In this document: in pieces, positions 36,616-57,280 of the stretch
How the letters are laid out: each line of letters opens with the position of its first letter
How positions within the stretch are numbered: position 1 is the first letter of the stretch
From: an uncultured Planctomycetota bacterium
Lineage (GTDB): Bacteria; Planctomycetota; Planctomycetia; Isosphaerales; Isosphaeraceae
DNA: 64,000 bases
Assembly: GCA_963845755.1 (NCBI GenBank)
Contig: CAWJTV010000019.1
Location: forward strand, 224,001-288,000
Reading direction: 5' to 3'
The notes under the pieces: model-generated
Told to the model about the DNA's origin: nothing
The model's input: only the letters and a program-made list of their open reading frames with translations
The model's database searches: none
Translations under genes and position numbers: made by a program

Positions 36616-39600
36616 CTTCCAATCCCCGCGGAATCAGGGGTCACTTAGATCTGGTCGCCGACGACGAGGGCCGGCTCTGCCCGTTTCAATCCCCGCGGAA
36701 TCAGGGGTCACTTAGATCCGTTCAAATCGCAGGGGCGAGGGCCGAACACCAGAAGTTTCAATCCCCGCTGAATCAGGGGTCACTTAGATCTGGGCTACGG
36801 TGGATTTCGTTGTCCTGGCAGCAGTCTCAATCCCCGCTGAATCAGGGGTCACTTAGATCCAGAAAGAAGGGACCATGAACAACGATCCCAGTTTCAATCC
36901 CCGCTGAATCAGGGGTCACTTAGATCAGTGACCTGTCCCCGAGCTCAAAATCCGCGTCTTGAGTTTCAATCCCCGCTGAATCAGGGGTCACTTAGATCGA
37001 TATGGTCCGATGTCGAGCGCTCTGCGCAACACCGTTTCAATCCCCGCTGAATCAGGGGTCACTTAGATCTCGAAGGGGCGGTGGGAGAAGCAGAGAATTA
37101 GATGTGTTTCAATCCCCGCTGAATCAGGGGTCACTTAGATCCTCACCAGGGCTCATCCCGGTCCTTCAACGCTAGTTTCAATCCCCGCTGAATCAGGGGT
37201 CACTTAGATCCAACGATGCGAACAAAGCCAAGTTGGCTGGCTTGTTTCAATCCCCGCTGAATCAGGGGTCACTTAGATCTTCGAAGTGCACAACACAACG
37301 CTTCTCGCCTTGGTTTCAATCCCCGCTGAATCAGGGGTCACTTAGATCATGCCCACGCCGACGACCGCGGCCGGCCGCAAGTTTCAATCCCCGCTGAATC
37401 AGGGGTCACTTAGATCTGGGCCTGCCGGCGGTCGCCGCGTTGGTGCGGTTGGTTTCAATCCCCGCTGAATCAGGGGTCACTTAGATCACGTCCCAGCCAT
37501 GGCCGAGCGCAAGCACATGTTTCAATCCCCGCTGAATCAGGGGTCACTTAGATCGAATACCAGGACTCGGAATTCGAGCTGCACGCGGAGTTTCAATCCC
37601 CGCTGAATCAGGGGTCACTTAGATCCATTATTCTCCTGATTCTGAGATACGGCGCGTCCGTTTCAATCCCCGCTGAATCAGGGGTCACTTAGATCGAATC
37701 CTCGACATCCAGCCGGCCGCGGGGTTCGTTTCAATCCCCGCTGAATCAGGGGTCACTTAGATCATTGTCAACTCCAACGTTCGTTCTGCAAAGGAATCGT
37801 TTCAATCCCCGCTGAATCAGGGGTCACTTAGATCTCGCTGCCGCCGCCAATGCTGCTCAAGCGGAGAGGAAGTTTCAATCCCCGCTGAATCAGGGGTCAC
37901 TTAGATCACAGGTCGAACCGGGTGTGTTGCCCGGTCGAATCGGTTTCAATCCCCGCTGAATCAGGGGTCACTTAGATCGATGCGACGTCTCAAGAGAATG
38001 GGCTGGCGCGCCATGTTTCAATCCCCGCTGAATCAGGGATCACTTAGATCTGGATGTACCGATCTATCGCCGGTGCATGATGTTTCAATCCCCGCTGAAT
38101 CAGGGGTCACTTAGATCTGGTTCACCCGCGCCATCTCCGAAGCCCTAAAAGTTTCAATCCCCGCTGAATCAGGGGTCACTTAGATCGACGAACCGGACGA
38201 TGCCGATAAGCTCGCTGGTTTCAATCCCCGCTGAATCAGGGGTCACTTAGATCGGAAGTTCCTCAACATGAGCACCTGGACTTCTGCGTTTCAATCCCCG
38301 CTGAATCAGGGGTCACTTAGATCAAACGCAGACTTTGTACGGAAACAAAGCTCCTGGTGGTTTCAATCCCCGCTGAATCAGGGGTCACTTAGATCGGCGA
38401 CTTCGCCACGCTGACCGGCGGCGACTAGTTTCAATCCCCGCTGAATCAGGGGTCACTTAGATCTGGATCGACGCCTGCAGAATGAACCCACCTCGTTTCA
38501 ATCCCCGCTGAATCAGGGGTCACTTAGATCAACATGCAGAGGCTCTCGACAGAATTCGGGCCAAATGGTTTCAATCCCCGCTGAATCAGGGGTCACTTAG
38601 ATCGCACTGCGGGCAATATGTTCGGGCTTTTAGTTTCAATCCCCGCTGAATCAGGGGTCACTTAGATCGCTGCGCCTCACCGAGTCTCACCGGGACGATA
38701 TGTTTCAATCCCCGCTGAATCAGGGGTCACTTAGATCAGTACAGCGAGCGGCCAGTTTGCTTCACGGCTGTTTCAATCCCCGCTGAATCAGGGGTCACTT
38801 AGATCGTCCGACGTCTACTGGATCACGCTGACGGAGGACGGTTTCAATCCCCGCTGAATCAGGGGTCACTTAGATCGAGAACCGCCAAGTTCGACGCTGC
38901 GCTTCGCGTTTCAATCCCCGCTGAATCAGGGGTCACTTAGATCAACAACTGTTTTGGTTCGTCGTGAAGATGCTCGTTTCAATCCCCGCTGAATCAGGGG
39001 TCACTTAGATCGGTATACCATAAGGTTCAACCGACCCAAACTAGTTTCAATCCCCGCTGAATCAGGGGTCACTTAGATCGCAAAGGGAGATGTCGTCATC
39101 ATCCCGCCCACGGCGTTTCAATCCCCGCTGAATCAGGGGTCACTTAGATCAATATTAGAATAATTGTAGGTAGAGAAGAGTGTTTCAATCCCCGCTGAAT
39201 CAGGGGTCACTTAGATCTTCGGTCCTCGCTTTGATGAGCTGCCTTTCTGTTTCAATCCCCGCTGAATCAGGGGTCACTTAGATCGAAGGCACTCGAAGAG
39301 AGCGCTAGCTCCTTGGGAGAGGAGGTTTCAATCCCCGCTGAATCAGGGGTCACTTAGATCCCATTCCAGACAGACCGCTTCCGCAGGCAACAGTTTCAAT
39401 CCCCGCTGAATCAGGGGTCACTTAGATCCACGGCGCTCAACGAGGCCAAGCCGCGCGTCAAGCCGAGTTTCAATCCCCGCTGAATCAGGGGTCACTTAGA
39501 TCAAGAGCGCTGGCATTGCCTTCGCTCCCTTCGTTTCAATCCCCGCTGAATCAGGGGTCACTTAGATCTCCAGCTGCTGCACGTCTCCGCCGCCATGAAG

Positions 39601-40325
39601 TTTCAATCCCCGCTGAATCAGGGGTCACTTAGATCAAAAGCGCTTCTTCTACTTTCTTTTTTTTTCTGTCGTTTCAATCCCCGCTGAATCAGGGGTCACT
39701 TAGATCACAAACTGTAGCAGCATCAGCACAGTGAGTGCCTTGTTTCAATCCCCGCTGAATCAGGGGTCACTTAGATCATCTGTCGGGCGTGTCGCGATGG
39801 AAAATGAAGTTTCAATCCCCGCTGAATCAGGGGTCACTTAGATCAAGTGCCTTTCATCGAGATCATACTCACTTGTTTCAATCCCCGCTGAATCAGGGGT
39901 CACTTAGATCACCGAACTGGTCCAGGACGGTATGTCCTACGCGTTTCAATCCCCGCTGAATCAGGGGTCACTTAGATCGGAAGTGCCAGGGCTCATCGAA
40001 ACGGCTCTTGTTTCAATCCCCGCTGAATCAGGGGTCACTTAGATCTTTACCGGGAGTGGACCGACAAGGATAGGCCGCACGTTTCAATCCCCGCTGAATC
40101 AGGGGTCACTTAGATCGGGTCGAGAGTAGCCAGTCGGTCGGTGTGGTTGGCGGTTTCAATCCCCGCTGAATCAGGGGTCACTTAGATCCTAAGTTCTACA
40201 AGGTCATCAAGGACCTCAACGTTTCAATCCCCGCTGAATCAGGGGTCACTTAGATCGCAAAGAAATGTGTAGTAGTTAAAAGTCGAGTAGTTTCAATCCC
40301 CGCTGAATCAGGGGTCACTTAGATC
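36616..40325 (-). CRISPR. CRISPR array, 54 repeats / 53 spacers (manual count); 36-nt repeat, transcribed-strand sequence GATCTAAGTGACCCCTGATTCAGCGGGGATTGAAAC
   Basis: Plus-strand repeat GTTTCAATCCCCGCTGAATCAGGGGTCACTTAGATC; spacers about 29-40 nt. Degenerate copies at 36616, 36683 and 36824 mark the trailer; the ATTGAAAC 3' end and adjacent cas2 fix the orientation. Confidence 0.97.
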
Positions 40326-40700
40326 TGCACATCCGGCCACATGTAATCTGGAAATCGTCCCAGACTGTCCTGGCATATCGACTTCCGATCAATCCGGGAT
40401 GCACGTGCCGACAAGTTAACGCGCAGTATCCCACTTGGCCACCCCTCACGTGGTTTTTTTCGGCTTGCGTTTCCGCCGGCGCCAACCAAAGCGAGAGGCG
40501 CAAACGGCGTCCCCGCGTCCCCGAGAGGACCCAGAGCAAGACCGAGGCCGCAAACCGCGGCCAGCCGCCCTGCTGTAGCGACCCGCTCATTCGCGCCCGT
40601 GGGGCCAACCTACGCCCCGGCAGGAAACGAACGGGAGTCGCGGGGGAGCGATGAACCCCCGTGCGGTATACGCTGGAACTCCCTCGGAAGTGCGAACCAT
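40326..40700 (-). promoter_or_regulatory. CRISPR leader
   Basis: Non-coding interval between the cas2 stop and the first non-degenerate repeat; position-based inference. Confidence 0.6.
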
Positions 40701-40973
40701 TCACACCACGATCACGGCATCCTCGGCGACCGGATCGCGCTGCCAGGAGATGCGTCGTTTGGGGAATCGGCGGTCGATGGGGAAAAGATCGAACGCATCG
40801 GTCTTGGCCAGCAGCAGGCCCACGCGGAACCGCAGTTCGTCGAGGTCCTCCGGCTCGACCTCGATCTCGAAGACGCTCCGCTGGACGCGGCGGCCATACT
40901 CCAGGAGGATCTCGGCGACGCGGGCCCGCCGGGAATCGCGGGTGACATCGTAGGCGGCGACGTAAAGGCTCAT
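40701..40973 (-). CDS. cas2: CRISPR-associated Cas2
   Basis: YVAAYDV, RRARVA..L..YGRRVQRSVFE; 90 aa; adjacent to the array. Confidence 0.93.
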   Translation of the reverse strand: MSLYVAAYDVTRDSRRARVAEILLEYGRRVQRSVFEIEVEPEDLDELRFRVGLLLAKTDAFDLFPIDRRFPKRRISWQRDPVAEDAVIVV

Positions 40974-43738
40974 GGGTGTTCGAACGGCTCCCAGGGTGAT
41001 TCGGGGTCGACCAACCGGCGTCTCAAACCGCGGGCCGTGGCGAGAAACTGCGCCAGCCAGGGCCGCGGCTCGGTCTGGCCTTTGCCGATGACGCCCGTCT
41101 TCCAGCTCCTCTGCATCAGCGCGTGAAACGTCTTCGCGGCGTGGTGCTCCAGTACCAGTGGATAAGGACCGTCAAAGCGCGGGACGAACTGGGACGGCTT
41201 CAAAATGCGCGTGGCCAGGATCACGGCCCGCTCTACCAGATGACGGAACGGCTCCTGAAGGTCGGCGGCGAGCGAGGCATAACGGCCGTCACTGGCGTGC
41301 AGGAACCCGACCGCGGGCGAAAGTCCCGCCGCCCGGCAGGCGGCGATCGCATGGCGGTAGAGCATCGTATGGCCCATGTTCAGCATCACGTTGACCGGGT
41401 CGCCGGCATCGGGCGCACGCGCAGATGAAACGAAAACCCCCTGCCGAGAAGCGAGGGGAGCCGCCGATACCACGCCGCCGCGCCCGACCCTTCATGCCCG
41501 CGCAGCGCGTCGAGCGACCCGGCCGTCATGCATTCCTCCGCCAGCTCGCGGAGCCGGACGGCGGTCGGTTCGCCGGGCTCGGTCGCGGCTTCCAGCAGGG
41601 CTGCGAAGTTCCGCAGCTTGGCCCGAACCAGCGGACGCGCCAGGAGCAGGGCGCATCGCCGGGTCGGCGGCAGCCAGGCATTGCAGCAAGATCGCCTCGG
41701 GATCGTCGGGTGGCTCGCTCACCAGATCGCCGATGGGCCAGCCCGCGTCGGAGAGCAGATGAACCGGAATCTTGCTGCGAAGGAGCTTGCCGGGAGCATC
41801 CGGGCTCCAGCCGGCCGGCCCCAGCACGATCAGCCGCTCCAGCGTGCTCAACGGGACGTCCTTGTCGTCGCTCTCGTCGGGGCCGCGAATCTTGAGTGAG
41901 TCGCCCACCACGTCCAGAAGCGTGATCCCCGGCCCAGCCACGATCACTCCCGCACCCACCTGGTGGGGCGTCTCCTGGGGCAACGCGAGCGCGAGCACCG
42001 ACGGCGTTCGATCAGCGTCCTTCCAGCCCAGCTCCTGCACCCGTCGCGGACCCGATGGCCCCGCGTACTGCCATCGCTCCTCATGACGAAATCGGTACCC
42101 CAGGAAGTCGAACGGCTCGCGGACGTCGATCACGGCGGAATCGGCGTTGAGCTGAAGCAGGAGATCGGCGGCCAGCTCCTGCGCGCGGACGTGCAGCCGC
42201 TCGGCATCGCCGCGTCGGCGCGTGAAGATCAGGAAGTCGTCCGCGTACCGGACCAGCCGTCCTCCCTCGTTCTCGATCGCTTCGTCGAACTGGTCGAGCA
42301 GCAGGTTTCCCAGCAGCGGAGAAAGGGGCGCGCCGGTGGGTATCCCCACGTCGCCCGGCAGCTCGGCCTCGACGAAGGACCACACCGCCGCCGTCGCTCG
42401 GTCGTCGCCGAGACAGGCTTCCAGCCGGTCGCGCGCGAGCTGACGCGGAACGCGATCGAAGAAACGGTCGAAGTCGGCGCGCACCGCAAAATGCCAGCCG
42501 TCGTTGACCAGGCGCTCGATGCGACGCGCCGCCGACGCGCGATTCAGTCCCCGACGCCAGGCGAATGAGGAGGTCTCGAAGAGTCGGTCCAGGGCCGGAC
42601 CCAGCCGCGCCAGGATCAATCGCTGCAAAGCCCGGTCCTCGACCGGCGGGATGCGCAGCTCGCGCGACGCGCCGTCAGCCGATCGCAAGACCACGCGATG
42701 AGCCTGGCCCGGCTGGTACGTGCCGGCCCTCAATTCTTCGGCGGCACGCCGGAATGCCTCGGGCTCGAGGTCATGCTCCGCGGCGGAATGTGAGATGGCC
42801 GCGGGCGAGAGGCAGAGATCCAGCAAGGGCCTGGCCCGCTGGCACTCGGTCGGATCGGGGCCAAGCTCCTCGATGCGGTAGCGACCAAAGCCGAAGTGCA
42901 GGTTCTTGCCGATGCGGGTGTACTGTCCCCACATCAGCGCCGCGACGGCGACCGGGTCGTGCACGGCGACGGTGATCCGCCCGAGCGCGCCCCGAGCGAC
43001 TTCCGCTCGTCGCGCCGCCCGTACTCGAGGTCGAGCCACGTCAGACGATTCGCCAGCAGCGTGATGGCCGAATCGTCAAAGGGGGCCTCGGCACCAGTAT
43101 CGGTATCGGTGTTATGATCGCGGCGACGTAGCCCGATGGCCGCGAGCCGCTTCTGGACGGTACGAAGGAACTGCCCGACGTGCAGGCCGGCGGCATCGGC
43201 GTAGCGATGTCCGGACTGCGCTTCGGAGCCGGGCCGTTCGAGCCGGAGCGGGCTGTGGAATCGAAGCGTCAGCGACTGGCCGGCCATGGCGTACAGCCGT
43301 TCGAGCTCCCGGTCGATCGTATCCAGACCGAGTGCCGCAAACGGTTCGCCCGGTGCCAGAGATCGTTTCGCGACGAGGTCTTGCACGTTGACGAGGTCGA
43401 AATTGCCTCCCAGCGCGACGGGCTTTCGCGGAGCGTCGTGCCCCACCCTGGCGAGCCCCTCGGAGATCGCGCAACCGCCGCAGCGCCATCGCGGGGTCGA
43501 ACTCGATGAGCGTGGCGCCAAAGGCAAAAAGATCGCCGGGCTCGTACCGATCGCGACACTGCTCCGGGGCATCCAGGAGCAATCCCTCCGGCATGTGCGA
43601 CGGCCGATCGGCGTCGTTCCCCCGAGCGGCATCACACAAGAGTGCGTAAAGGATGGCGTTCTGGTGACTGTGCAGAGTCCACGCCGATCGCGCGCGAAGC
43701 GTCCAGCGGACGCGGAAGAACGGTGTCTCGATTGACAT
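40970..43738 (-). CDS. cas1: Cas6-reverse transcriptase-Cas1 fusion (several frameshifts in the assembly)
   Basis: N-terminal RAMP region with LTLRFHSPLRL and G-loop IGKNLHFGFGRY, in the same ORF (41492..43039) as RT motifs RELRIP...DRALQ, ADFDRFFD, GIPTGAPLSPLLGN, RYADDF. Cas1 follows: LRGHEG, DPVNVMLN, GFLH, LAADLQEPFR. It overlaps the cas2 start (ATGA). Confidence 0.88.
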
Positions 43739-44066
43739 CGATCCAGCTCCCGGATCATGAGGGGATTGGGAGAAGCGGGGCCGTCGGCTCCGACACGGGT
43801 CCCCAGCGTCGCCGGAATCCGTAATCGGGCAAGGAGCCGCCGTACCAGCCTTCCGGTCGAGCGATCAGGAAACGGTTTTGGGGCCGGTCCCCTGGGATCC
43901 GCGCGAACCGATCCGCGACGACGGCGCTCCGGTCGCAAGGGAACACGACGACAGTCAACCGCACACCGGGGAGGATCCGCGCGGTCTCCCGGGCGCTCTC
44001 AGCCGGGGCTGTCGGTTCGTTCGGCAGTGATCCCCTGGGCAGAGCGGTTGGCCACTGGGAGTTTGG

Positions 44067-44680
44067 TCAGGCGATCAAATCCGTCGCAAGTTCCTGAGCC
44101 TGTTCGCGATCGTTTCTTGGTTGGCCAGACAGTTCGGAGAGCCCGTGGGCCACTTTCTTCGTGAACGACACCGTGATCCGATACCACGAGTAGCCTGCAA
44201 GCGCCGTAAGTAATACCCCCAAGAGGCCGACGAGCCAGGCCAACACGGCCTGGGAGACCCCGAACTCCGGCGCCACTGCCTGCCGATAAACAGCTCGCCG
44301 CACAGGGTGATGAGTGTGAAATTGAACACGGACGATCGGCAGATCCTTACCCTCGTCCTCATGTAATCGAACTGGCGGGACAGCCATTCGTCCCGCTTAC
44401 GGCCGAGGAGACGCGTCACGGTCGGGCCGTCGTCATGCATATATCTGCGTCGGATGCGTCAACTAATGGGATGGAGCAGGTCGTCAGCCAGGTTGTCGAC
44501 GAATACGCCAGCCGGGTAAAGAATCGGCAGCAGGGCTGCCGCGATGGCCACCTCCCACCCTTTGAGTTCCTTCAGCGCGGCGGGATCGAACCCGACGAAG
44601 CTCGCGACGAGCAGGCACAGCCAGATGCCCACCTGAACGCCGGAGATCAGCAAATCCACGAAGAGCAATGTCGTGTTCAT
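44067..44680 (-). CDS. Predicted 4-TM membrane protein of about 200 aa (in-frame TGA at 44459 and one frameshift near 44280)
   Basis: ORFs 44459..44680 and 44075..44440 share a frame; the C-terminus is in 44067..44387; four hydrophobic segments; start overlaps the NTPase stop (ATGA 44677-44680). Confidence 0.65.
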
Positions 44681-45301
44681 GATTCTTGAAGGGCTGCAAC
44701 GCCTTGCGGGTTGACGGCGGGCTCCGGGGCGCTCGCCAGTCGGACCAGAAGCCGGGCTAACTCCCGGACCATCGGACGTTCGTGGACGGGCTCACCGCGT
44801 TCCAAACGATGGATCGAGCCGGTCAGGAGACCCGTGTCCTTCCAACGAACGTCATCTTCAATGCCCCCGTAGTCGCTCCAGATTTCGGCCACAACCGTCA
44901 GACCCACTCGAGCCGCGAACTCACGCCACTCGTCAAACGCACCGCGGTCGCCAGCCAGGAGTATGGCGTGGGTCGCCCCGGCGCTGATCTTCTCATTCTT
45001 CTCGTCGGGCACGCCCCCGATATCAACCAGCGTCAGTGGCTCCGCACAGTTTCTTACCGAATTGGCGACGAGTTGTACGAACTCGGGAGTGAATCGCGCT
45101 ATAGGCTTTCTTGTATGCCTGGGCCCTCGCGGAATCACGTCGAACGGTTTCCTGATACCAGGCTCCCTCACCGTCGGGACAGGCGGTGATGACATAGCAA
45201 TAGGGGGCGCCGGATATGTGCGACACCGCGTCCTTCAAACCCTGCCGCAGGCAAGACTTGCCCGACTGCGGTGGGCCGCACAAGACCACTTTGATGCTCA
45301 T
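44677..45301 (-). CDS. Csx3-associated P-loop NTPase (frameshift near 45100)
   Basis: Walker A GPPQSGKS, ACPDGEGAW motif, Walker B-like LVDIGG, ATHAILL; split between ORFs 45023..45301 and 44677..45195. Confidence 0.75.
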
Positions 45302-45355
45302 CGAGCACTCTCCGAACTGTCACAATCCCAAGGAAAACCCCTCGGAGATGATCGA

Positions 45356-45671
45356 TTACTCCAGTTGCTGCCCCAGTTCGAAACTCGGGGTCATGGGTGA
45401 TACACACGACGTAGCCGGGGGAGAGTTTTGGATCGCGCCAGGCCAGCGCCTCGAACTTATGAGCGACCTCATGTGCAAGCACCACGGCGACGAGCACCGA
45501 CACCGGCCCGTTGAACTTGACGAGCTTCCCACCGGTCAGGTTCAGCTCTCTGATGGCCGCCACTGCATCGCGAATGATCTCCGGGTTCTCCGCCGGGGCA
45601 CCGAATGAGGTGCGCAGTTCTACAACTCCATGGGATTCTTCTATGATCTCGACCGTATAATGCTTCGCCAC
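45356..45671 (-). CDS. csx3: Csx3/Crn3-family protein, divergent type (second copy)
   Basis: GGKLVKFNGPVSVLVAVVLAH...DPKL...YVVCITHDP. Removing one base near 45382 gives the natural end HDPEFELGQQLE*. GGAGG SD precedes GTG at 45671. Confidence 0.7.
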
Positions 45672-46111
45672 GTGCCCCTCCCATTGGTTCATCGCTCGTT
45701 GCGACAGCGCCGAAGCGATCGCACTCTACTGCGTCAGATCTCCACAAGCCCGCGGGCCTCTCACCAGCGGAAAGCCCGGGGGGCGGCGGACACTCAAGGT
45801 CGGCGGCCCGCGGCCCTGCCCATCGAGTTCGGAACCGAAGAGTATTCGCCGGGCTCCAACGAAGATTCAGGCTCCGCGCCGCCTGGGCAACTGGGTCAGC
45901 GGCCCAGCCCGCCGACCGCACACCTGATTGATCAGCATAAGCCACACCAGGGCGGATCCGCTACCGTGTGGCGTTCGAGAAAGACCTGGAGCACATTCAC
46001 GCTTGGATTGAGCACGCGGACTTGAGAAGCCGGTGCCGACAGATCGCGATCCCCCGACACTGGCACAGGACTGATCTCTTGGAGAGGCATGATTGACGAG
46101 ATCGGCGTACA

Positions 46112-46459
46112 TCAGGATGTGCCCATTGACTCACGCTCGCAACTCGCTTGTCCTCCGGTCGTTGGGCCAGGCCCCGCGGGGGCGGGAGTGGCCGGCGGCG
46201 TTACATCGATGACCTGGCCCTCATGCCACTCAGGGCGATGGGACGCCACGACGACGGCCCCCAGGCGGGGATCGTAGACGGCGATCGCCCCGGCCGGCGA
46301 GCCATGCAGGCGGTGAAAAGCGATGCCATAACGCCAGATCGGCGCGCGGCCCTCGATGACGACCAAGGCGCCGCGCGGGATCGTGGGCAACGACGGCAGT
46401 GGCTCCTCGGGCCGGATCGGCGCGGTGACGCCGATGGAGTAGAAGACGACATCAGTCAT
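46112..46459 (-). CDS. csx3: Csx3/Crn3 cA4 ring-nuclease family protein
   Basis: VVIEGRAPIWRY...H...AVYDPRLGAVVVASH; likely start MTDVVFY at 46459. Confidence 0.88.
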   Translation of the reverse strand: MTDVVFYSIGVTAPIRPEEPLPSLPTIPRGALVVIEGRAPIWRYGIAFHRLHGSPAGAIAVYDPRLGAVVVASHRPEWHEGQVIDVTPPATPAPAGPGPTTGGQASCERESMGTS

Positions 46460-46619
46460 CAAAGATGTCCCCGTTGTGATCCCGGACGATGGTCCTTGCC
46501 GCCATTTGGAGACCTCTGGTTTCGACTTTGGGTGATGGGCTAAGGCTATCTCCGACATTGGTGGGACGAGGATTCCAACTTGCTGCACGCTGGCCGCGCT
46601 CGCAACCGAGGACGCGGAG

Positions 46620-46837
46620 GTTTCAACGCCCTCGGCGCGGGCGAGACCTGTTAGGGTAGCAGCCAGTGCCATGCATGTCCCTTGCGAGACGTTTCAATCC
46701 CCGCTGAATCAGGGGTCACTTCGATCCGCAGCCCGAGACGAAAACAGCTCTCTCCTGTGTTTCTAATCCCCGCCGAATCAGGGGTCACTTTGATGTCGCA
46801 GCCAGTGCTATGCATGTCCCTTGCGAGTCGTTTCAAT
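46620..46837 (-). CRISPR. Degenerate CRISPR mini-array with a duplicated spacer
   Basis: Repeats at 46691-46726 (1 mismatch) and 46759-46795 (degenerate); GTTTCAAT stub at 46830-46837; divergent repeat-like unit at 46620-46657; spacer 46659-46690 recurs at 46798-46829 with 2 substitutions. Confidence 0.85.
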
Positions 46838-47094
46838 GTTCTTGGACCGGACGAGACACATAAATCTCGTGTCCTCCTCTTGAATTTACTCGGAAACCGA
46901 GGATAATTCAAGTATCGCGGGCGTAGAATTGGAGGGAGGGCAGAGTCTCTCCATATGTAGTGCTCGGTTGACCATTACGGAACGTGGTTTCATGACCTGT
47001 TATCATCGATGATTTCAAAAGCAGCCAACGTCATTCATGTCACCTTGGAGAGACTTCTCCAGAGCGATCCACTAATCCTATCTGGAGGAATTCC

Positions 47095-47481
47095 ATGACG
47101 ACCGTCTCACGATTCCAAATGGACCTGACTTCCGCCGAGCTGGGACTCATCGAGCGATGGATGCGCTTCGCAGGTTTCCGAACGAAGAAGGAGTTCCTGC
47201 TCAATGCGTTCACGCTGTTCCAGTGGGCTGCGAAGCAGGTCTTACTCGGCGCACGATCCTCGCCGTGAACGAATCCACAGGAGAAATCCGTCACCTGGAG
47301 ATGCCAGGCGCTGGCTGCGATCGGGGAAAGCTATCCACCGGGCACCCTCCTGACACCCGAGGAGACCCGACGGCGGGCTGCCCAACCGGGACAGCCTTTG
47401 GAAGAAGTCCTTTCGAAGCTTCGAAGAGGAGACCAAGATGCCCAGGTCGCCTGTGGAGTGGACGCCGAAGGCGGTGGATGA
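47095..47481 (+). CDS. Putative ribbon-helix-helix antitoxin/regulator (two frameshifts; not in the ORF track)
   Basis: GGAGG SD; MTTVSRFQMDLTSAELGLIERWMRFAGFRTKKEFLLNAFTLFQWAAKQVLLG/RTILAVNESTGEIRHLEMP...TPEETRRRAAQPGQPLEEVLSKLR. Confidence 0.55.
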
Positions 47482-47744
47482 TCTCGCGAACATACAACGA
47501 TCATCCGGATTTGCACAACGAGATCACTTCCGTCGCGCAGGAGGTTGATAGCCAGCTCGCGAAAAACCCGCGACAATTTGGCGAGTGCCATCAGGATCCC
47601 GATGATCCTGACGGCACTGAAATGGGGGTTGCATTGGAACCCGTCAGCGCCGAGTTGCTGGTCCGCATCGAGTTCGAACTTGGGGACATCGTCAAAGTCG
47701 TCTCATTCAAGCCAGTGAAAAGGCGGAGGAGGAAGGCGGACTGA
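47438..47744 (+). CDS. Putative RelE/ParE-like toxin (one frameshift near 47495)
   Basis: GAGGAG SD; MPRSPVEWTPKAVDDLANI/YNDHPDLHNEITSVAQEVDSQLAKNPRQFGE...VKVVSF; about 100 aa; overlaps the upstream gene. Confidence 0.55.
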
Positions 47745-47975
47745 TCCTCATTCGGGCCTGGAGGACAGATGCGTTGATTCCTCTCATGGGAGCGGGTAAG
47801 TTCTCTGAAGCGGGGACTGGCCGAGATGGCGTCGAGTCGAGACGCCGACGCCCCTGAGCGAGAACCCGCGCCGGTCTGCCGCCCGATGCCCTCGGGTCGC
47901 CGGGGGTTTGGGAATCGGCAGCGGTTCGAGGTTTGAACCAACCCCAGGTTGTGCCCTCATACAAAGGTTCCAACG

Positions 47976-49416
47976 ATGGGCCGCACCATTCGCGCCTCTT
48001 GCCCGGAATCCGAGGCCCCTGCTCTGGTAAAGCCTCCCGAGGGAGCCTGGAAGATTGGGGTTCGTCTGGTCACACCGTTGTTCGGAGGGGGACCTCGCCG
48101 GGCAGTACGACGTTGGCACACCGTTTGCCCCCAAGGCGATTCGCGGCCAGCTTCGGTTCTGGTGGCGCTCGTCGCGGGGTGGGCGCTTCCTCCCGACCCC
48201 GATCGATCTGCGGTTGAACTCATGAGCCTGCGGGAGACGGAGATCTTCGGCAGCGCCGAGTTGCCCAGCCCGTTCGATCTGATCGTCAGCGATGTGCGGC
48301 TCAACGGAGAGCGCCGCCTCGATGCGAAAGAGGAATACGAATTTGGGAGGTTGGGACCAGAGGCTTACGCGCTTTTCTCTGCGAAACAGAACAAGGTCGG
48401 GGCGATTGTGAAGGAAGGAGCGACGTTCACCCTCGAAGTGCGTTTGTCGTCGGCCCGGGCGTTCTCGCGAAGGCAGTCCATCGAACAACAGCGGCGTGAG
48501 GAATCGACGAAAACTGCTTCCGATGGCAAGCGCCGACCACTCGATTGCCTGGAACAAGAAGCTGTCCGGGATCATCTCCGCGCCGCGCCTGTGGGCATGG
48601 CTCAATCTCGGCGGCCTCGGCGCACGTACACGGCGGGGTGTCGGTTCCGTCACCACGGACAAGCAGGAATTCTCCTTCCTCGCGGACGGCAAGCTACGAC
48701 ATGCCCTCCCGGCGACGATCGTCTTGGCCGATCCTAAGCAGGGGACGACTGCGGCCCTGGCGTCGGGCAGCCGCAGTGGGAGTCTATCAGAGATTCCGCC
48801 AGGGATTCCGAAGGCCTCCCGGAAAGAAGGGCCCCGCACCGGGTCGCTCGAAGTGGCCTGAGCCCGACTCGCTGCGCAAATCGCAGGATGTGCCTTGGAG
48901 CCGCGCCAAGGCGACCCGCGCATCATTCCACGCCGGTCGTTCCCACTGAGACGATCCCTGGCTTCCCTCGCGCGGCCTTGGGCCTGCCAATGATCTTCCA
49001 TTTCGCCCACGGCGACGGGCCTGGCAAGGATCAGCCGCCCAAATCCTTCAAGGATCCAGCGGACGGATCTGAATCCCAAGATTGTTGGGTCGGATGCAAA
49101 ATCCCGCAGGGGAGCGGATGGCGAGCCCCGTCCTCACTCGTGCGGTGTGGATCGAAGGCCAATGCGGTGCCCGCGATCATCGTGTTGCGACATCCCCCGG
49201 CGTTGGACCGCTGATTTTTCCATTGGAACCACACCTGAACATCAAGGGCGTCAATGCCAAGGGGAACGCGAGGACAAATCGCGAGACGTCGCTCACGATC
49301 GGATCGTGAACCCGGCCTTCGCGACGCTCGAACCGATGCAGAAGCAAAGCAACGCACGGGACGCGCTCCTGGTCTTTGTCCGTGCGAACGGTTTCCGGGA
49401 CTTCCAAGGAAAATGA
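47976..49416 (+). CDS. cmr1: Type III-B RAMP Cmr1 (multiple frameshifts)
   Basis: LVTPLFGGG, EIFGS...SP, AWLNLGGLGARTRRGVG, WPEPDSLR, FPRAALGLP.IFHF, RMASPV. Confidence 0.85.
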
Positions 49417-51672
49417 GCCTGGCCATGGAATACCTGATGGCGGTCTCGATCGGCCCGGTGCAGGGATTCATCGCGGCGGCGAGACGGACCCGAGACTTCT
49501 GGATGGCTTCCACCATCCTGTCCGAGTGCGACAAAGCGGCCGCGCGCTGGATCGTCGAGCAGCCGCCCGGATCGGCGGATTCCCCCGATTAGAGCGGTTG
49601 ATCTTTCCGTCGCCACGCAACAGGTGGACGAGCCCAGCGAAAAGGATGCTCTCGCCGGGGCAGTGCCTCGACCTCAAGGCTTGGGATTTCACCGAGGATA
49701 ACACGTGCTCGCCATCGGAGCGACTTCAATGTTACGAACGTCTTGCTGTTCCGATTCCAGACCGAAGATCCCGGGGGAGGTTGTCGCTCTAATCCGCGAT
49801 GATGTGGTCGGACGATGGAGTTGGTTTGTCAAGCGGACTCTGGACCGCAAGGTCAGGGTCCTCGATGGGCCCCGGGCCGGCGAGGAATTGCCCGTCGAGA
49901 CCGACCTCTGGGATGCCGCCTTGTCGGGCCAACGCGAAGCCGCGAGAGACGTCTTTCAGAATTTCGCCGCCGGGGTCCCTATTGATGCCGCTCTCGGCAA
50001 GTACGGGGACGCGAGGAATCGCGTAATGAGGCTCCTAAATGGACGTAAGTCGTGTTGCGACTTCAAACCCTGGAAAGGGGTTGCCGGCCGGCCGAAATCC
50101 TCCTTGGACGGGGTCGCGCGAATCCGTCCTGAAGGAGCCTGTGGATCGCGTATTACCCTTGGACATTCGGCCGGGCGAACAGCTCGATCTGGTGGGGCTG
50201 GTCAAGCGACTCGAGTTCGGCAACGATGCGATCCGGTTCCCTTCCGTGTCGCGCCTGGCTGCCGACCCATGGATTCGGGCCGCATGCACGGACCCTCAGG
50301 CCAGAAAGAGCCTTGAGAAGATCGAGGCGATTTGCGAGGAACTTCGTGGGCTCAACCTGATCCGAAAGCGAATGTACTTTCCTAACGCGGCCAAGGAGGA
50401 CGATCCGCCAAAGTTTCCTTGGTGGGACGATTTCCCTTTCGAAGGATCTCCGTCGTCGTTCATTTCCCGCCACCGGGAACTGATGCCGGCAACATCCGGC
50501 ATTCGAGCCGGACTTCAAACCACGACCGGGTGAGGACCCGGTAGCGACCCGAAAGCGGGAGGAGCCGGTCGGATCACTGGAGAACCCGGTCCTCTCAGAT
50601 CGAGCAGAAGCTTGACTTGGTGGAAGATTTGGTAAGATGCATGAAGCCCTCTCTCTGCGAACCATCTCCTTATTTCGCCATCGTCGTGGCCGACGGCGAC
50701 GGCATGGGGCGGACGATCTCGTCCCTTGCATCGCTGGACGACCCCGATATTCACCGAGCCTTCTCGCTGGCCCAGTCTGTCTTCGACGACGAGGTGCGCT
50801 CCCACGATCGATGGGAGATCCCCTGCGGAAATCCGCGATCCGGGGTCCCGAGGGTGATTCGCGAGTGGTCGGATTTCATGGCGCCACCGTCTTCGCCTCC
50901 CGGTGACGACGTCCTGTGTTTTCTCCCAATCGACCAGTGCCTCGTCGGGGCGAGGATGATGCACGACCTGTTCGATCAGATCCTGCGCCGAGAGTTCGAA
51001 AAGTCGCCTTCAGGTGTGACCGCTCTCCGGCATCTTGAGGACCAGGGACCGATGCCGACTCTCTCCGTCGGCATCGCCATCGGACACTTCATGGAACCGC
51101 TCGAAGACCTCCTCGCTTTCGCGAAAGCCGCGGAGTATCGTGCGAAGAACCCGACAAAAGAGGACGTGCCTTTGCCGCCAAGTCTGCGCAACGGTCTGGC
51201 TCTCGCAATCCATCCTCGAGGCGGGGCGGCCTTTACCGTGCGCGATAACTGGTCCGGAGTCGATTCCCCCGGTTTCCAGCCCCTGGATCGGCGACTGCTC
51301 GAGTGGGCAGAATTACACCAGGAGAAAGTTCTCCCCACCAAAGCGGCCTATGATTTGCATTTGGCCTCGCGTTTTTACACGAACTGGAAGTCCAACACTG
51401 ATGCCGACAAGGAAGCCCTCCGGCGAGCCATCCGGTCGAATTGCCTCCGGTACTCGCGCGGGAGGCGGTTCCGCCGGTAGGGAGGATGACAGGAGGAAGG
51501 TGCGCGACCTAATCCAGAACGTCCGGAACACCTCAGATCTGGAGAGCCTGGCCCATGAGCTGATTGCCGGCCAGTGGATCGGTGATGCGTCCGGCAGGCA
51601 TCAGTCCCGCGGCCTGACGGCAATCAGCCAGGAGAACCGTCTCAACAGCACGCCCCCGGGGGAGTCGTCTGA
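49413..51672 (+). CDS. cas10: Cas10/Cmr2 lacking an N-terminal HD domain (multiple frameshifts)
   Basis: Begins directly with SIGPVQGFIAAARRTRDFW.AS.ILS; KSSLDG.RES; YFAIVVADGDGMG; GDDVL; TLSVGIAIGHFMEPL. Confidence 0.88.
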
Positions 51673-52960
51673 TGTCGGCATCGAGCATCTACCTGTCACT
51701 GACTCCCCGCGATCCGCTGATCCTCGGGATGGGCGACCGTTCTCCGCCGGGTACCGGATGAAGTCGCTGGACTGGTTCTATCCGTCCGTGTTGGCGGGCT
51801 CGTTGCGGACCTTACTCGGCCAGAAACAGGGGGGGTTTCCGCCACAAGGTTCCGACGAGTATAGCCGGCTCGTCCACTCGCTCAAACAGGTCGAGTGTGC
51901 CGGGCCTTTTCCTTGCGTCACGAGGGATGGAAAGCCTCCAGAACTCTATTCTCCACGTCCGGGGGATTTTGTGGTACGGAAGAAATGTGGGAGGCTGCAG
52001 GGCCTCCCGGTCCGACCGTGGGATCTGGACCAGGAGTGTGGTGGATGCGATCTACCGAAAGGCCTCTCGCCTGTGATTCTGAATCCCGAGGTCGTGAAGG
52101 GCGAGTTCAAACCTTCGCCGGTGCCGGCATTCTGGTCGCGGTCGCAAATCACTTCGTGGCTGACAGACGCCACCGGGACTTCCTTTCGGATGAGAACTCA
52201 ATGGGGGGATGGAGATCTGGACGCTCCGTGCAAAGAGGAACGGACTCATGTCAAAATGAGTTATGATCTGGCGCCGGGCAAGATGGCAACCTCTTTCAGA
52301 CGACGGGCCTCGTCCTCGAGGAACTTCCTCGTCCTGATCAAGAGGAAGAATGCCTAAAGACTGCTCAATCCATCATCTTGGTGTCTCGGCTCGTCTGCGG
52401 CCCTGAAAGCCCGTTCCAGACGATCGGTGCCTCCCTCAATGACTCCTCTCCCTTCGGTGGAGAACGGCGTCTCATGCACTGGCAGGCGGGAGGCGCCCCC
52501 GCCGTCGTGGGATTGCCCTAAGGCGGTGAGGGATGCCCTCAATACTCTCGAGCAGGAAGATCAACCGTGTTCGTTCGTATGGTCCTTGCCACGCCGGCAT
52601 TGTTCCGGCGCGGGTGGTGTCCGGGCTCGATGGATAGAAAACACTCACCGGCGAGGTGCCGGGAACGGGTGTGAGCGTCCGACTCATCGGGGCTGCAACG
52701 GAACGGTGGAGGCCGGTCTCGGGTTGGTCATACGAAACGGCTCTTGCGCCCAAGCCCGTCCGTCGCGTCGTTCCCGCCGGAGGTGTCTTTTTCTTTGAGG
52801 TCACGCCGGGCAGCCCTCGTCCGCCGTCTCGCTGGCGGATCACTGGCTGAGATCGGTCTGCGACGATGAACAGGATCAACGCGATGGCTTCGGCCTCGCT
52901 CTTTGGGGAGTCTGGAAACCGTTTAAAGACACGCACACTTTTATAGGATCAGCCCGATGA
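51672..52960 (+). CDS. cmr3: Type III-B Cmr3 (frameshifted)
   Basis: LTPRDPLI.RDGRPF, PSVLAGSLRT, SLPFGGERR, VSGW...PKPVRRVVPAGGVFFF, RDGFGLALWG. Confidence 0.85.
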
Positions 52961-53934
52961 GCACGGCAATGTCACCGACGGTGGGACAAGTGGCGCGACA
53001 CCGTGCAAGGTCCCTACTGGATTCACGCGCTGACGCCGCTCCATGTCGGCTCCGGTCGCGGGATTGGGTTCATCGACCTGCCGATCATGCGCAGAAAGCC
53101 ACCGAGTATCCCTTCGTCCCGGGATCGGCCGTGAAGGGCGTCCTGGCGGATCATCATGGCGCCGATGATGAGGCCCGCGACCAATCGAACAAGCAGAATG
53201 GCAGGTTCAAGCCGGACCTGAAACTGGCGTTCGGGTCGGGGGGAGATGAGTTCGCCAACTCCGGAGCAATCGTTTTCACCGACGCGCGACTCGTGTGTCT
53301 CCCGGTTCGCAGCCTGTATGGAACATTCGCCTGGTGCACGTCGAACCTCATCCTGAAGCGGCTCCAACGCGACCTCGTCCGTTGTCACCATTCCTGGAGA
53401 CCGCTGCCACCTCAGGCGACAAAGATCGACCGAATTGTCGTCACGAACCTATCGACCTCGGCGTTGAAGGATCAGGATCAGCGGGCCTTCTTCGAGGACC
53501 TCGATTTCACCATGGAGACCAGTGAAGCCGCGGAGGAGTGGGCGAAGTCGCTGGCCGAGTCGGTGTTTGCTGATCCCGACTGGCAGAAGCTTTTCCTCGA
53601 TCGATTCGCCGTCGTTCACGACGACGTCTTTACGTTCCTCTGCGAGACGGCCACGCAAGTGGACGCGCGCGTGAAGATCGACGACGACACCAAGACCGTC
53701 GCGAAAGGCCAACTCTGGTACGAGGAGTCGCTGCCGGCGGAATCGATCCTGTCTGGTATCGCCTGGTGCGGGCCGGTATTCGGTAACAATGGGAACCGAA
53801 ACGACCCAGAGAAACGGCGCCAACTCATGAAGGACTTCTGCGGCGGTTCTCACTATCTGCAACTTGGCGGCAAGGCGACGGTTGGTCGAGGCCAGGTGCG
53901 GTTGACTTTCTCGGACGGAGCCTCGGCGGGCTGA
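52957..53934 (+). CDS. cmr4: Type III-B RAMP Cmr4
   Basis: HALTPLHVGSG...IDLPI (frameshifted N-terminus), YPFVPGSAVKG, DARLVCLPVRS, LWYEESLP, LQLGGKATVGRG. Confidence 0.92.
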   Translation: MSTAMSPTVGQVARHRARSLLDSRADAAPCRLRSRDWVHRPADHAQKATEYPFVPGSAVKGVLADHHGADDEARDQSNKQNGRFKPDLKLAFGSGGDEFANSGAIVFTDARLVCLPVRSLYGTFAWCTSNLILKRLQRDLVRCHHSWRPLPPQATKIDRIVVTNLSTSALKDQDQRAFFEDLDFTMETSEAAEEWAKSLAESVFADPDWQKLFLDRFAVVHDDVFTFLCETATQVDARVKIDDDTKTVAKGQLWYEESLPAESILSGIAWCGPVFGNNGNRNDPEKRRQLMKDFCGGSHYLQLGGKATVGRGQVRLTFSDGASAG

Positions 53935-53994
53935 GGACTCTTCCTTCCTCCAAGGCCCGCGAGGGCCAACCTCTTCTTGAATGACAAGAAATCT

Positions 53995-54364
53995 ATGAGT
54001 ACCACATCCGAAAGCAAGCCCATCCGAACCCGCCAGCAGACGATGGCCCAGGCTGCGTTCGAACACGTCGATCGTCGGCACGGCGCACGGATCGACATCC
54101 CCAGGGAATCCGCTCCTTCGCGCCTCTCGTTCCCATCATTGATCCAGGCTGCCGGGCTGTGTCAAGCCGTTGCATTCGCCCAGGCAAAGGGAGGAAGGAA
54201 CAAGGAGGTCTTGGACGACGTAGTTGCGACGATCAAGGAATCGAAGAGTTATGAGGGAGATTTGAGGAAGACATGCACAGAAAGGCGTCGGCGAGTACCT
54301 TCGTTTGACGCGTCTGGCTCTCCAGGCCGCGACGTGGGTCAAACGATACGTTCGAGGCGCTTGA
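53995..54364 (+). CDS. cmr5: Type III-B small subunit Cmr5 (frameshifted)
   Basis: TRQQTMAQAA, FPSLIQAAGLCQAVAF, EYLRLTRLALQAATWVKRY; end approximate. Confidence 0.8.
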
Positions 54365-54448
54365 CAGAGAGACGAATGGGCCACCCAGAACCAACTTGGC
54401 GAGCACCCTGAACACCAGTGAGCCGTCGTGATCGATCGGGGAGTTCCC

Positions 54449-55625
<1,177 letters not shown>

Positions 55626-55790
55626 ACGGAAAACCACAAGGCCGGTGCCTCGCGGGACTCCTGTACCGAAACGATCGCGCCAGCTTCTGACTCGCTATCC
55701 CGGTCTGTCTACGAGATGCAAACGGGTGAGAGCCCGAGTCCATCCCTCTGTCATGACGAGGACCGTCGGCGTACGGAGCAGCCCGAATTC

Positions 55791-56871
55791 ATGTGGCGGC
55801 ATCTCTGTTTGACCGTACTCCAGGCCGAGTACCGGACCGATCGCTCTTGCGAGCTGCCGGAATACCTAGGCTCGACGTTGCGCGGGGCGTTCGGCCAGGA
55901 GCTGCGCGGTGAGCTGCGTCGAGGAGGGTTCGCTGTGCGCGGTTTGTCGGCGGCCGGATCGTTGTGCCTCCGGGGCGATGTTCGATGACCAGGTGATGTC
56001 CCTCCCACTCGATAGGGAGGGAAGGGGTGAATCCCCCCTCATCCGGCCCTACGGGCCACCTTCTCCCCCGAGGGGAGAAGGACTTTCCCTGGGCTTCGAC
56101 CGGCCGCGGGCGTATGTCCTCGTCCCGCCGCCGCGGCGCCGGGGCAGTTATGCGGCCGGCGAGACGATCCGGTTCGGAGTCACCCTCGTCGGCCGGGGTC
56201 GGGTCTGGTCCCCGTGGGTCGTCGCCGCGATGGCCGGGATCGGTCGACGGGGCATCGGCGTCGAACGGCAGCATTGGTCGCTGGTCCGGATCGGCGCGGT
56301 CGGTGCCGACGGCGGTCTCGTCGAGATCGATCCCGGGACCGCCGGCGACGGAGCGGTCGTCCCCGAGCTCTCGGGCGCCGGGATCATCGCCGACGGCCCG
56401 CCTCCCACTCCCCAGGCCATCGTCGCCCTGGTCACTCCGGCCGACCTTCAGCAGAAGGGCCGGCGGCTCGATCGGCTCGATGGGCCCGCGTTCTTCCGTC
56501 GGCTCATCCGACGCATCGGCACCCTGGTCGAAACCTATTGCCCCCCGTCGCCGGAAGCCGGGGCCTGCGATTATCGCGCCCTGGCCGATCTCGCCGACCA
56601 GGTCGCGGTGGAAGACCAGCAGGTCGCCGTCCAGACTTGGGAACGCTACAGCAACCGTCAGGAGGCCAAGCATCCCCTCTCCGGTCTGGTGGGACAGGCC
56701 CTGTTCACGCACATCCCGGAACCCCTCTGGCCTTATCTGATCCTCGGCCAATGGGTCCACGTGGGTAAGGGGGCCAGCTTCGGCCAGGGGCGCTACCTCG
56801 TCTTGCCGCAGGACGAGTCCGAGACCAGGTCGATCCCGAGCTCCGTGCGTTCTCGCAGGCCCGGCTGGTAG
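55791..56871 (+). CDS. cas6: Stand-alone Cas6 with a Cys cluster (one frameshift near 55910)
   Basis: LPEYLGSTLRGAFG, C...CAVC....C, WERYSNRQ, GLVG, G-loop HVGKGASFGQGRY. Confidence 0.88.
55999..56081. repeat. Triple-hairpin palindromic element inside cas6
   Basis: TCCCTCCC/GGGAGGGA, GGCCC/GGGCC and CCTTCTCCCC/GGGGAGAAGG stems. Confidence 0.65.
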
Positions 56872-57280
56872 TCTGACGCCAAGCCCCCCCAAATCGACCT
56901 TGGTTGGGCCGGACGGCACAAGCGATTCGTTCTCAGGGGCGGCCGTTGAAAAAACGTCCGGGCACGCGCATAACCGCGCCAACGATAAAGCGCCCGTGGG
57001 TCAGGTCCTGTTTTACGTGATGCATGATCACTACGTGAAGTCCGTGCTCCATCGGCAGCTTGTCGGCGATCAGGGTCGATTGTTGTCTCCAACCCCAGAC
57101 CCATCCCAGGATTTCCGGAGCCAAGTTGCCAAATCTGCAAAAGTATCCATTAATCAAGGATGTCGGGACTTCCCGGCGGCGTTCGAGGTGCGCAGGGTGT
57201 TGAGGAAGGCGGGTGATTGCATGGGGGGACGAATTGGAATTGGGTCGCGGACGACTCGGCCAAACTCGGAAACGAAAACG

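Follow-up and report, generated by a model that had tools for sequence, protein, structure and literature searches.

Can a guide encoded in a type III CRISPR locus be directed at the transcript of the operon beside it? This question is raised by a short, degenerate repeat-spacer array, hereafter the mini-array, on the minus strand of a 64,000-nucleotide stretch of DNA (the window) from an uncultured Planctomycetota bacterium of the family Isosphaeraceae (GenBank assembly GCA_963845755.1, contig CAWJTV010000019.1, positions 224,001 to 288,000 of the forward strand). A preliminary description of the window had proposed that the mini-array gives rise to a regulatory RNA resembling a CRISPR RNA (crRNA), and had named no target. 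We found that one of its spacers, A, has an imperfect antisense partner, A'', in the 5' untranslated region (UTR) of a neighbouring two-gene cassette. The structure can be regarded as settled: a patchwork, duplicated and partly decayed array, with one intact unit, whose spacer A has this imperfect partner. That the array is a self-directed guide, which regulates or once regulated the neighbouring operon, is the reading that we put first, and only tentatively.

Architecture of the mini-array

On the minus strand, the mini-array consists of four repeats and three spacers in the order R0-A'-R1-B-R2-A-R3 (Table 1), and all the elements listed in the preliminary description were recovered where it had placed them. 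R1, R2 and R3 are 36–37 nt long and the spacers measure 35, 32 and 35 nt, as befits a CRISPR array. A single repeat family with unique spacers is not what was found: two repeat families are present, and spacer A occurs twice, with three differences. Two of these, at positions 2 and 21 of 35, are the two substitutions over 32 nt reported earlier, and the third falls at position 33. The motif GGCTGC, previously noticed at or near the 3' end of all three spacers, is indeed located 1–3 nt from the end of A, A' and B; it is present in 0 of the 53 spacers of the main array, among which no duplicated spacer was found either. In addition, GTCTCG occurs four times within 46620–46859, in R0, B, A and R3 (manual reading). 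The main array starts at 40326, which agrees with the gap of 6.3 kb noted before.

Comparison with arrays recovered from related genomes indicated that the repeats are of two origins. Specifically, the last 25 nt of R3 match the repeat of genome G376 at 22/25 and that of contig G231:C3 at 20/25 positions, compared with 14/25 for the main repeat. When the shared TTGAAAC is left aside, the identities are 15/18, 13/18 and 7/18, respectively, and R3 and the G231:C3 repeat can form a common short GC hairpin, placed immediately ahead of (G/T)TTGAAAC. R3 is therefore no drifted main repeat: by these comparisons it is assigned to a second repeat family. R1 and R2 belong to the family of the adjacent array associated with a gene fusion of Cas6, reverse transcriptase (RT) and Cas1 (Cas6-RT-Cas1). 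R2 has a G at position 5, as have all the related arrays recovered (L024, L089–L091), whereas 54/54 main-array repeats have a T. The repeats of L024, and repeats found in L090 and L091, have exactly the sequence of R2; the L089 copies end in ATTGAGAC. No leader or trailer homology between the mini-array and the main array was found.

The tag at the head of the array, formerly described as bare, proved to be the end of a longer element, since the 30 nt that terminate in it (46859–46830) match the last 30 nt of R3 at 21/30 positions. This is the best score in the window apart from R3 itself, tied with one unrelated site, and 47 window sites reach at least 18/30. On the strength of this match, R0 is probably a decayed repeat of the second family. 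Moreover, the 43 nt upstream of the tag align with spacer B and the start of a repeat, with a score that 11 of 3000 shuffles reached; of 3000 random 43-mers taken from the window, 24 reached it. Together, the likeness of R0 to R3 and the B-like remnant point to a tandem duplication of a B-repeat-A-repeat unit, of which the upstream copy has decayed, with second-family repeats outside and main-family repeats inside.

The units differ in their state of preservation. Hairpins are retained in R1, R2 and R3, and the fold of R0 is weak (−1.2 kcal/mol). The insertion in R1 alters its tag to ATTAGAAAC (manual reading, against the main consensus). Only R2 with spacer A has a canonical repeat, hairpin and tag before it, and R3 with its family-typical hairpin behind.

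In relatives, csx3, the cassette and genes of type III systems are accompanied by second-family repeats. At 12–20 kb from the G231:C3 array there are a Cmr4-like gene and a homologue of cas6, which fits an assignment of the second family to the cmr/cas6/csx3 module. The data thus fit a scheme in which the main repeat family belongs to the Cas6-RT-Cas1 module and the second family to the cmr/cas6/csx3 module.

Table 1. Positions in the window of the mini-array elements, the candidate target and the neighbouring features.
Feature	Position	Strand	Remarks
Tag ATTGAAAC	46837-46830	minus	3' end of R0
R0, decayed repeat, probably second family	46830..46859	-	21/30 to the end of R3; family hairpin lost
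Remnant like spacer B and repeat start	46838..46880	-	overlaps R0; position-specific alignment score 18
Spacer A'	46829-46795	-	35 nt; older copy of A with 3 derived substitutions
R1, main-family repeat	46794-46759	-	3 substitutions and a 1-nt insertion; hairpin kept
Spacer B	46758-46727	-	32 nt; target search negative
R2, near-perfect main-family repeat	46726-46691	-	1 substitution (T5G); canonical tag ATTGAAAC
Spacer A	46690-46656	-	35 nt; guide of the sole fully intact crRNA unit
R3, second-family repeat	46655-46620	-	family hairpin, then GTTGAAAC
Near-palindrome, 34 bp, with promoter-like hexamers on both strands	46879..46912		core is the conserved operator-like motif of the cassette
A'', imperfect complement of spacer A; candidate target/protospacer	47018..47054	+	in the cassette 5' UTR
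Two-gene cassette	47095..47744	+	between mini-array and cmr1
csx3 (ring nuclease Crn3/Csx3), intact	46115..46459	-	Pfam 7.8e-22, TIGR02579 1.5e-19; 160 nt downstream of R3
cmr1, cas10, cmr3, cmr4, cmr5, cmr6, cas6	47976..56871	+	Pfam; stand-alone cas6 at 55909-56871
Cas6-RT-Cas1 fusion gene, frameshifted	40970..43738	-	RT-Cas1 with a Cas6-like N-terminus
Main array	36616..40326	-	54 repeats, 53 unique spacers of 29-40 nt

A third copy of spacer A in the cassette leader

Local alignment of the mini-array with its own upstream region revealed a third copy of spacer A, here called A''. The minus-strand alignment, GAGAAGTCTCTCCAAGGTGACATGAATGACGTTGGCTGCT at 47060–47021, scored 40, compared with 22.6 ± 3.3 for shuffled sequences, whose maximum was 33.5. 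A'' matches A at 24/35 positions without gaps, or at 28 of 37 aligned columns if two 1-nt insertions in the target are admitted. In an ungapped scan of the genome on both strands (about 28.5 million positions), only four sites other than A and A' matched A at 24/35 or better. A'' is one of these, 362 nt from A, and no match to spacer A in the genome outside the array is better. The similarity between A and A'' is beyond chance.

A'' is located 41–77 nt upstream of the cassette start codon, between the promoter/operator and the ribosome-binding site. Since A'' reads in the sense of the spacer, crRNA-A would be complementary to the plus-strand RNA. Spacer A is a guide partly complementary, over 47018–47054, to a control region of its own locus, which is how known crRNA-like regulators are designed. 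When crRNA-A was paired with the predicted UTR (46914–47094) in RNAduplex, the energy was −45.6 kcal/mol, against −29.8 ± 4.0 kcal/mol for random 181-nt stretches of the window, of which 1 in 1491 was as low. On the same UTR, A' reached −34.9, B −32.0 and the best of the 53 main-array spacers −31.4 kcal/mol. At 3/3 positions that separate A from A', A'' agrees with A (manual reading).

The likeness stops at the ends of the spacer. The 36 nt upstream of A'' match R2 at only 7/36 positions (manual count), and the repeat likeness downstream of it is not significant, its score being reached by 402 of 500 shuffles. With homology confined in this way, A'' looks like a target or protospacer and not like a copied piece of array. 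An older simple array in the A'' region was considered as well and rejected, on the same downstream result and on a likeness to B that was weak across the segment (reached by 44 of 500 shuffles).

In the best global alignment, mismatches between spacer A and A'' fall at spacer positions 6, 18, 22, 24, 25, 34 and 35, and the target has two extra bases; the first can be placed equally well behind position 5, 6 or 7, and the second follows position 11. According to an excerpt of PMC8376896, type III guides pair with their targets in segments 1–5, 7–11, 13–17, 19–23 and 25–29, the sixth bases being left unpaired. Here, segments 1–5, 7–11 and 13–17 pair at 5/5 positions and segments 19–23 and 25–29 at 4/5; 3 of the 7 mismatches and both insertions (beside 6 and 12) lie at or beside every-sixth positions. 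In a simulation, at least 3/7 mismatches fell on sixth positions while both insertions stood next to such a position with a probability of 0.004, a value which is suggestive only, because the test was chosen after the alignment had been seen; in the ungapped register alone, the enrichment of sixth positions is not significant (0.17). A limited literature search found no paper on the tolerance of Cmr for extra target bases at flipped positions. The flank of A'' is complementary to the tag at 4/8 positions (−7, −5, −4 and −2; manual reading). As a general rule, tag pairing damps Cas10, and by this rule the partial pairing at A'' would be expected to reduce activation, not to abolish it.

Further targets were looked for. 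The search of the host with the spacers, which the preliminary description had advised, was rewarded for A by the match in the cassette leader and gave no match for B. A BLAST search of A, A', B and R3 against their own genome returned nothing beyond 18 nt. When viral contigs were scanned for exact matches, A and B had 0 hits each; phage records gave 0 hits, and plasmid records one 27-nt hit at chance level. Matches to mobile elements, which had been foreseen as the mark of an ordinary relic array, were thus not obtained from viruses or phages, and the one plasmid hit is of chance level.

The leader that contains A'' belongs to a cassette overlooked in the preliminary description. The placement of the mini-array between the divergent csx3 and cmr operons stands, with the correction that this cassette intervenes before cmr1; the degenerate mini-array is therefore set within the cas locus, between csx3 and the cassette with the cmr genes. 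Gene 1 starts at 47095, is preceded by a GGAGGA ribosome-binding site and needs two frame changes, and gene 2 (47438–47744) needs one (manual readings). Five homologues of gene 1 in the same bacterial family share 67–70% identity over the N-terminal 52–53 residues. They are intact, of about 110–140 aa, in G376, G356, G275 and G231 (two copies), and there, too, they are followed by another small gene.

A single promoter-like site was reported in 46000–48200, TTGAAT-16-GATAAT on the plus strand (46880–46907). It is part of the near-palindrome, whose minus strand reads TTGAAT-17-TAAATT (manual reading). A CTCG..CGAG inverted repeat followed by a −10-like hexamer stands upstream of the five cassette homologues (manual reading), and a 28-nt match links the promoter region of the window to G356. 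As this motif is conserved upstream of the cassette homologues, the promoter belongs to the cassette. In the interval 46000–48200, 0 terminator-like sites were found; Rfam families gave 0 matches at E <= 1 in 45800–48000, and the fold of the transcript from the array to csx3 (z-score −1.3) was not informative.

Neither cassette protein matched a Pfam or NCBIfam family. The gene 1 model (predicted local distance difference test, pLDDT, 63) has helices at 13–25 and 32–50 and no N-terminal strand in the monomer, and the AlphaFold model of gene 2 (pLDDT 58) has two helices followed by four strands. With these poor models, Foldseek returned nothing from the PDB at E <= 0.001. The nearest named Atlas clusters to gene 2 are ParE-like (0.89–0.90), which is a lead only. 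The putative pairing of a ribbon-helix-helix protein with a ParE-like one is likewise a lead, taken from the sequence and matched by no family or fold. The cassette may be a CRISPR-linked regulator or a toxin-antitoxin pair.

Four of the six cassette copies in the bacterial family adjoin CRISPR arrays or cas genes. Besides the copy in the window, these are the one in G376, 600 nt from a second-family array of 39 repeats; that in G231:C3, in divergent orientation to Card1-csx3, behind which comes an array of the second family; and that in G356, about 580 nt from cas6-homologous fragments. Alongside the G275:C4 copy, no CRISPR or cas elements were found. The apparent mini-array by the cassette copy in G231:C2 was rejected: it is a triple 31-nt direct repeat with 58/68-nt spacing, found at four places of that genome (C1:1378113, C2:3692116, C2:4484030 and C5:2556224), that is, a dispersed element, and the spacers of the G231:C2 cluster do not match the cassette.

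As a separate observation, 20 of the 38 spacers in the G376:C66 array (L105 559–3376) start with purine-pyrimidine-G, often RYGTCT (manual count). Neither the G231:C3 array nor the main array of the window shows this strong bias at the repeat-proximal end.

Relatives and the state of the cas genes

Several results obtained with relatives and with the cas genes of the window weigh against a self-directed guide, and they are gathered here with the remaining points of the same tenor. No orthologous mini-array came to light in repeat scans of species genomes and metagenomes or when 121 genomes from the bacterial family were searched at the DNA level; these searches gave main-type arrays only. Conserved spacers in related loci, which the preliminary description had proposed to look for, were not found, and no related locus turned up with this design and with guide and target varying together. 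None of the 7 homologous cassettes has A'' in its 5' UTR, and in neither of two relatives (0/2; G376 and G231:C3) does the array hold a spacer matching the UTR of its own cassette. Spacer B has no target in the locus, the genome or the cassette UTR; the target of A carries two 1-nt insertions; and the periodicity test was picked with the data in view.

The damage to the cas genes points in the same direction. Compared with the intact homologues of G015, all six cmr genes are spread over at least two frames each, whereas csx3 keeps to one. Relative to the intact 901-aa copy of L024 (about 88–90% DNA identity), Cas6-RT-Cas1 has frame-breaking indels of −2, +12, −1, +1, −1 and +1 and no nonsense codon. 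The cassette needs three frame changes in all (manual reading), and the damaged Cas10 is the only PF22335 match of the genome.

Between the window and L024, Cas6-RT-Cas1 shows 166 synonymous and 85 non-synonymous codon differences. The copy of G001, a genome of the same genus, has its own indel set and shares with the window the +12, one −1 (compensated 76 nt later) and a +1 situated 18 nt before the stop. Of the lineage-specific substitutions in RT-Cas1, those of the window number 16, 6 and 44 at codon positions 1, 2 and 3, and those of G001 number 6, 8 and 50, which is a strong third-position bias. Outside the CRISPR locus, the window contains uninterrupted open reading frames (ORFs) of 1190, 1487 and 1272 aa, among others, and a uniform rate of sequencing error therefore cannot explain the frame breaks. 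They would reflect either very recent decay of the locus or local mis-assembly, and we lean towards real, recent decay.

Frameshifted cas genes beside intact long ORFs recur in several large genomes of the family, as seen in the window and in the RT-Cas1 of G001 (G001:C12, L120/L121). Card1 of G231 (L109 8518–9929) appears in Pfam as two overlapping ORFs, and the cas6 homologues of G231 and G356 align in pieces. Across genomes, this may be due to recent parallel decay or to locus-specific assembly error.

The individual scans are as follows. A degenerate-repeat scan of species genomes gave 81 loci, nearly all of them single hits to a coding motif (manual reading); the same repeat was found only in L024 and a different one in L061. 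The metagenome scan gave three short contigs, all with main-type arrays. Apart from the repeats, the L024 genome has no match to 44000–49000. In G001, a main-type array and Cas6-RT-Cas1 are present at 95% identity and homology ends at window position 43757; no csx3, cassette or mini-array was found at this place, and a weak Cmr4-like match was found elsewhere only. In G015, csx3 lies at the end of the cmr operon, and in G002 (L006 16–1560, G002:C159) it forms the C-terminal part of a 514-aa ORF right after cmr6; in both, no repeats were found nearby. The intergenic region of G356 has no significant likeness to the mini-array.

Some observations made along the way are of independent use. The degenerate pattern GACCCC-N9-GGGGATTGAAAC matches single sites in dozens of unrelated bacteria (L008–L088), where it translates to LDVTPLSLGIET, presumably a conserved motif of DnaK. 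Such DnaK-like coding sites are a trap for repeat-based scans. The 514-aa ORF of G002 has a long N-terminal region which looks CARF-like by eye. The L024 contig, labelled Myxococcota, shares the repeat, the leader and Cas6-RT-Cas1 with the window at 88% DNA identity (window 39954–43743), whereas the family of the window is placed in the Planctomycetota by a DUF1559 neighbour and by Atlas taxa; such likeness across phyla suggests transfer or mis-binning.

Within the window, a second, weak csx3-like ORF was detected by Pfam on the minus strand. Three tandem 42-nt units occupy 57272–57420, after cas6, inside an ORF matching no family, and are followed on their 3' side by a 331-aa ORF (57828–58823) which we take to be malate dehydrogenase. 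Imperfect repeats of period 12–18 nt at 35577–35756 encode a Thr/Pro-rich stretch of the 1272-aa ORF (32638–36456).

A proposed self-directed guide weighed against its alternatives

What speaks for function is that guide and target are adjacent and suitably oriented, that their homology ends with the spacer, that mismatches and insertions follow a sixth-position pattern, and that R2 and spacer A are better preserved. In agreement with such a function, no repeat is in better condition than R2, the family hairpin survives in R3, A' pairs with the leader worse than A, A'' stands between the conserved promoter/operator and the ribosome-binding site, and four of the six cassette copies adjoin CRISPR arrays or cas genes. 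The case against is built on the base rate of degraded mini-arrays, the lack of a conserved counterpart, the insertions in the target, the targetless B and the damaged cas genes. The regulatory crRNA-like RNA of the preliminary description has thus gained a candidate target for spacer A, and it is weakened by an unconserved design and frameshifted cas genes.

Should the array act as a self-directed guide, its transcription would start from the minus-strand part of a palindromic promoter/operator shared with the cassette, and Cas6 would cut in R2 and perhaps in R3. The resulting crRNA-A would be loaded into the Cmr complex and would bind the cassette leader, which may double as the leader of the cmr operon, with good pairing in the 5-nt segments and irregularities only at every-sixth positions. 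The outcome would be binding or cleavage of the locus's own mRNA, and hence feedback on the cassette, possibly on cmr, instead of a full immune alarm. Given the frameshifted cas genes, this function may already be lost.

Nearly as likely as a self-directed guide, and a serious contender to it, is an inert relic: the decaying stump of the second-family array of the cmr module, partly overwritten by main-family repeats and locally duplicated. A'' would then be either a local duplicate of spacer A gone astray or the site from which the RT-Cas1 machinery once took a self-derived spacer. The lost hairpin of R0, the altered tag of R1 and the three derived changes of A' are what decay would leave, in a region of repeated local duplication with frameshifted cas genes, and G001 has a main-type array and Cas6-RT-Cas1 without csx3, cassette and mini-array there. 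Published work is in keeping with such a fate: in an excerpt of the survey PMC10120712, mini-arrays occur at 10–16% of type III loci, show neither conservation nor targets and are judged to be degraded repeats; self-targeting spacers often come with mutated targets or cas genes, as related in part of the review PMC6990116; and an RT-Cas1 type III-B system acquires spacers from both RNA and DNA in either orientation (excerpt of PMC5576922). However, neutral decay or escape should hit paired and unpaired positions alike, contrary to the clustering of mismatches and insertions near sixth positions, with the post hoc probability given above. It would call for some special cause if, in a genome of 14 Mb, a self-derived spacer had come from a site 362 nt off. 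Some repeat homology would be expected beside a stray piece of array, and the flanks of A'' show none; R2, besides, is nearly perfect among decayed neighbours.

An ordinary small defence array, with A and B directed against mobile elements, the duplication due to neutral recombination between repeats and A'' of no consequence, seems to us unlikely. It is true that the hairpins of R1, R2 and R3 are kept, that the spacers lie within the length range of the main array, that a full second-family array adjoins csx3 in G231:C3 and that most spacers anywhere are without a known match. Nevertheless, no match to viral contigs (exact) or phages was found and the lone plasmid hit is at chance level, the relation of A to A'' goes far beyond chance, and the 53 spacers of the main array include no duplicate. 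Less likely still is a processing signal, in which the repeats would mainly be there for Cas6 to cut the 5' leader of the csx3 transcript, freeing or stabilising the csx3 mRNA or leaving a tag-like 5' end after R3, with the spacers as passengers. The array does precede csx3 by 160 nt and shares its strand, no terminator-like site was found around it, csx3 and an array are neighbours in G231:C3 too, in the other order, and the locus has two Cas6 units; yet csx3 in G015 and G002, at the end of the cmr operon or fused, has no repeats nearby, and A'' would be left unexplained. As for an assembly artefact, whereby the duplicated spacer would come from a mis-assembled repetitive region, it would accord with the many indels of the locus, but mis-assembly would give identical copies. 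A and A' have three differences, R1 and R2 three and an indel, and the flanks differ, so that the suspicion of an artefact, voiced in the preliminary description, is dismissed and this explanation is hardly credible.

The self-directed guide finds its closest models in CreR-type regulators, the regulatory mini-arrays of types I and V-A (excerpts of PMC10120712 and PMC12737573). The features in common are a degenerate mini-array in a cas locus and a guide that can pair in part with the control region of an operon in its own locus and is situated beside that operon's promoter. CreR-type regulators, however, guide DNA binding at promoters next to a protospacer-adjacent motif (PAM), whereas in the present case the effector is an RNA-targeting one and the site, which has no PAM, belongs to a 5' UTR; their conservation across loci is also not seen for the present array. 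In the excerpt of the review PMC12737573, CreR is placed in types I and V-A only, and the survey PMC10120712 found no type III case of a regulatory mini-array. The CreTA and CrePA systems, in which a crRNA-like antitoxin represses a toxin gene in a CRISPR-Cas locus (excerpt of PMC12737573), share with the mini-array a guide-like RNA beside a small cassette. The second gene of the cassette may be a toxin, and the cassette would be de-repressed if the effector were lost. Unlike in those systems, gene 2 is only a putative toxin, on the ParE-like Atlas lead and with no family or fold match, and the cassette has a putative protein partner and an operator of its own.

Self-targeting accidents (Stern et al. 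2010, as cited in part of PMC6990116) share a spacer that matches the host, here only imperfectly, as well as a mutated target, decayed repeats and damaged cas genes, and differ in that the match here is to the immediately adjacent transcript, the changes avoid paired positions and the spacer persisted long enough to duplicate and diverge. The same part of that review states that partial self-matches can permit binding without damage. The degraded type III mini-arrays of the survey excerpt (PMC10120712) are alike in being short, with degenerate repeats, in a type III locus and with no conservation seen; they differ from the present one, which has a candidate target and mixes two repeat families.

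The more far-reaching claim, that this is the first type III counterpart of CreR/CrePA, in which a Cas6-made crRNA in Cmr binds the leader RNA of its own neighbouring operon, the pairing holds in the 5-nt segments and drifts at the unpaired sixth positions, and expression of the cassette (a possible toxin-antitoxin pair), perhaps also of cmr, tracks a working Cmr, is one that we consider doubtful. Even if the mini-array is inert, the locus has annotation value, for its array of mixed repeats, for a cassette that recurs by CRISPR elements and for the widespread damage to cas genes in this lineage. That guide-like RNAs turn CRISPR effectors against genes of their own cell is established for types I, II and V; for type III it is not, and the one broad survey yielded no candidate there. 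If the self-directed guide is real, it would mean that RNA-targeting effectors can be tamed for self-regulation, and it would offer a natural example of mismatches that permit binding without the cyclic-oligoadenylate alarm.

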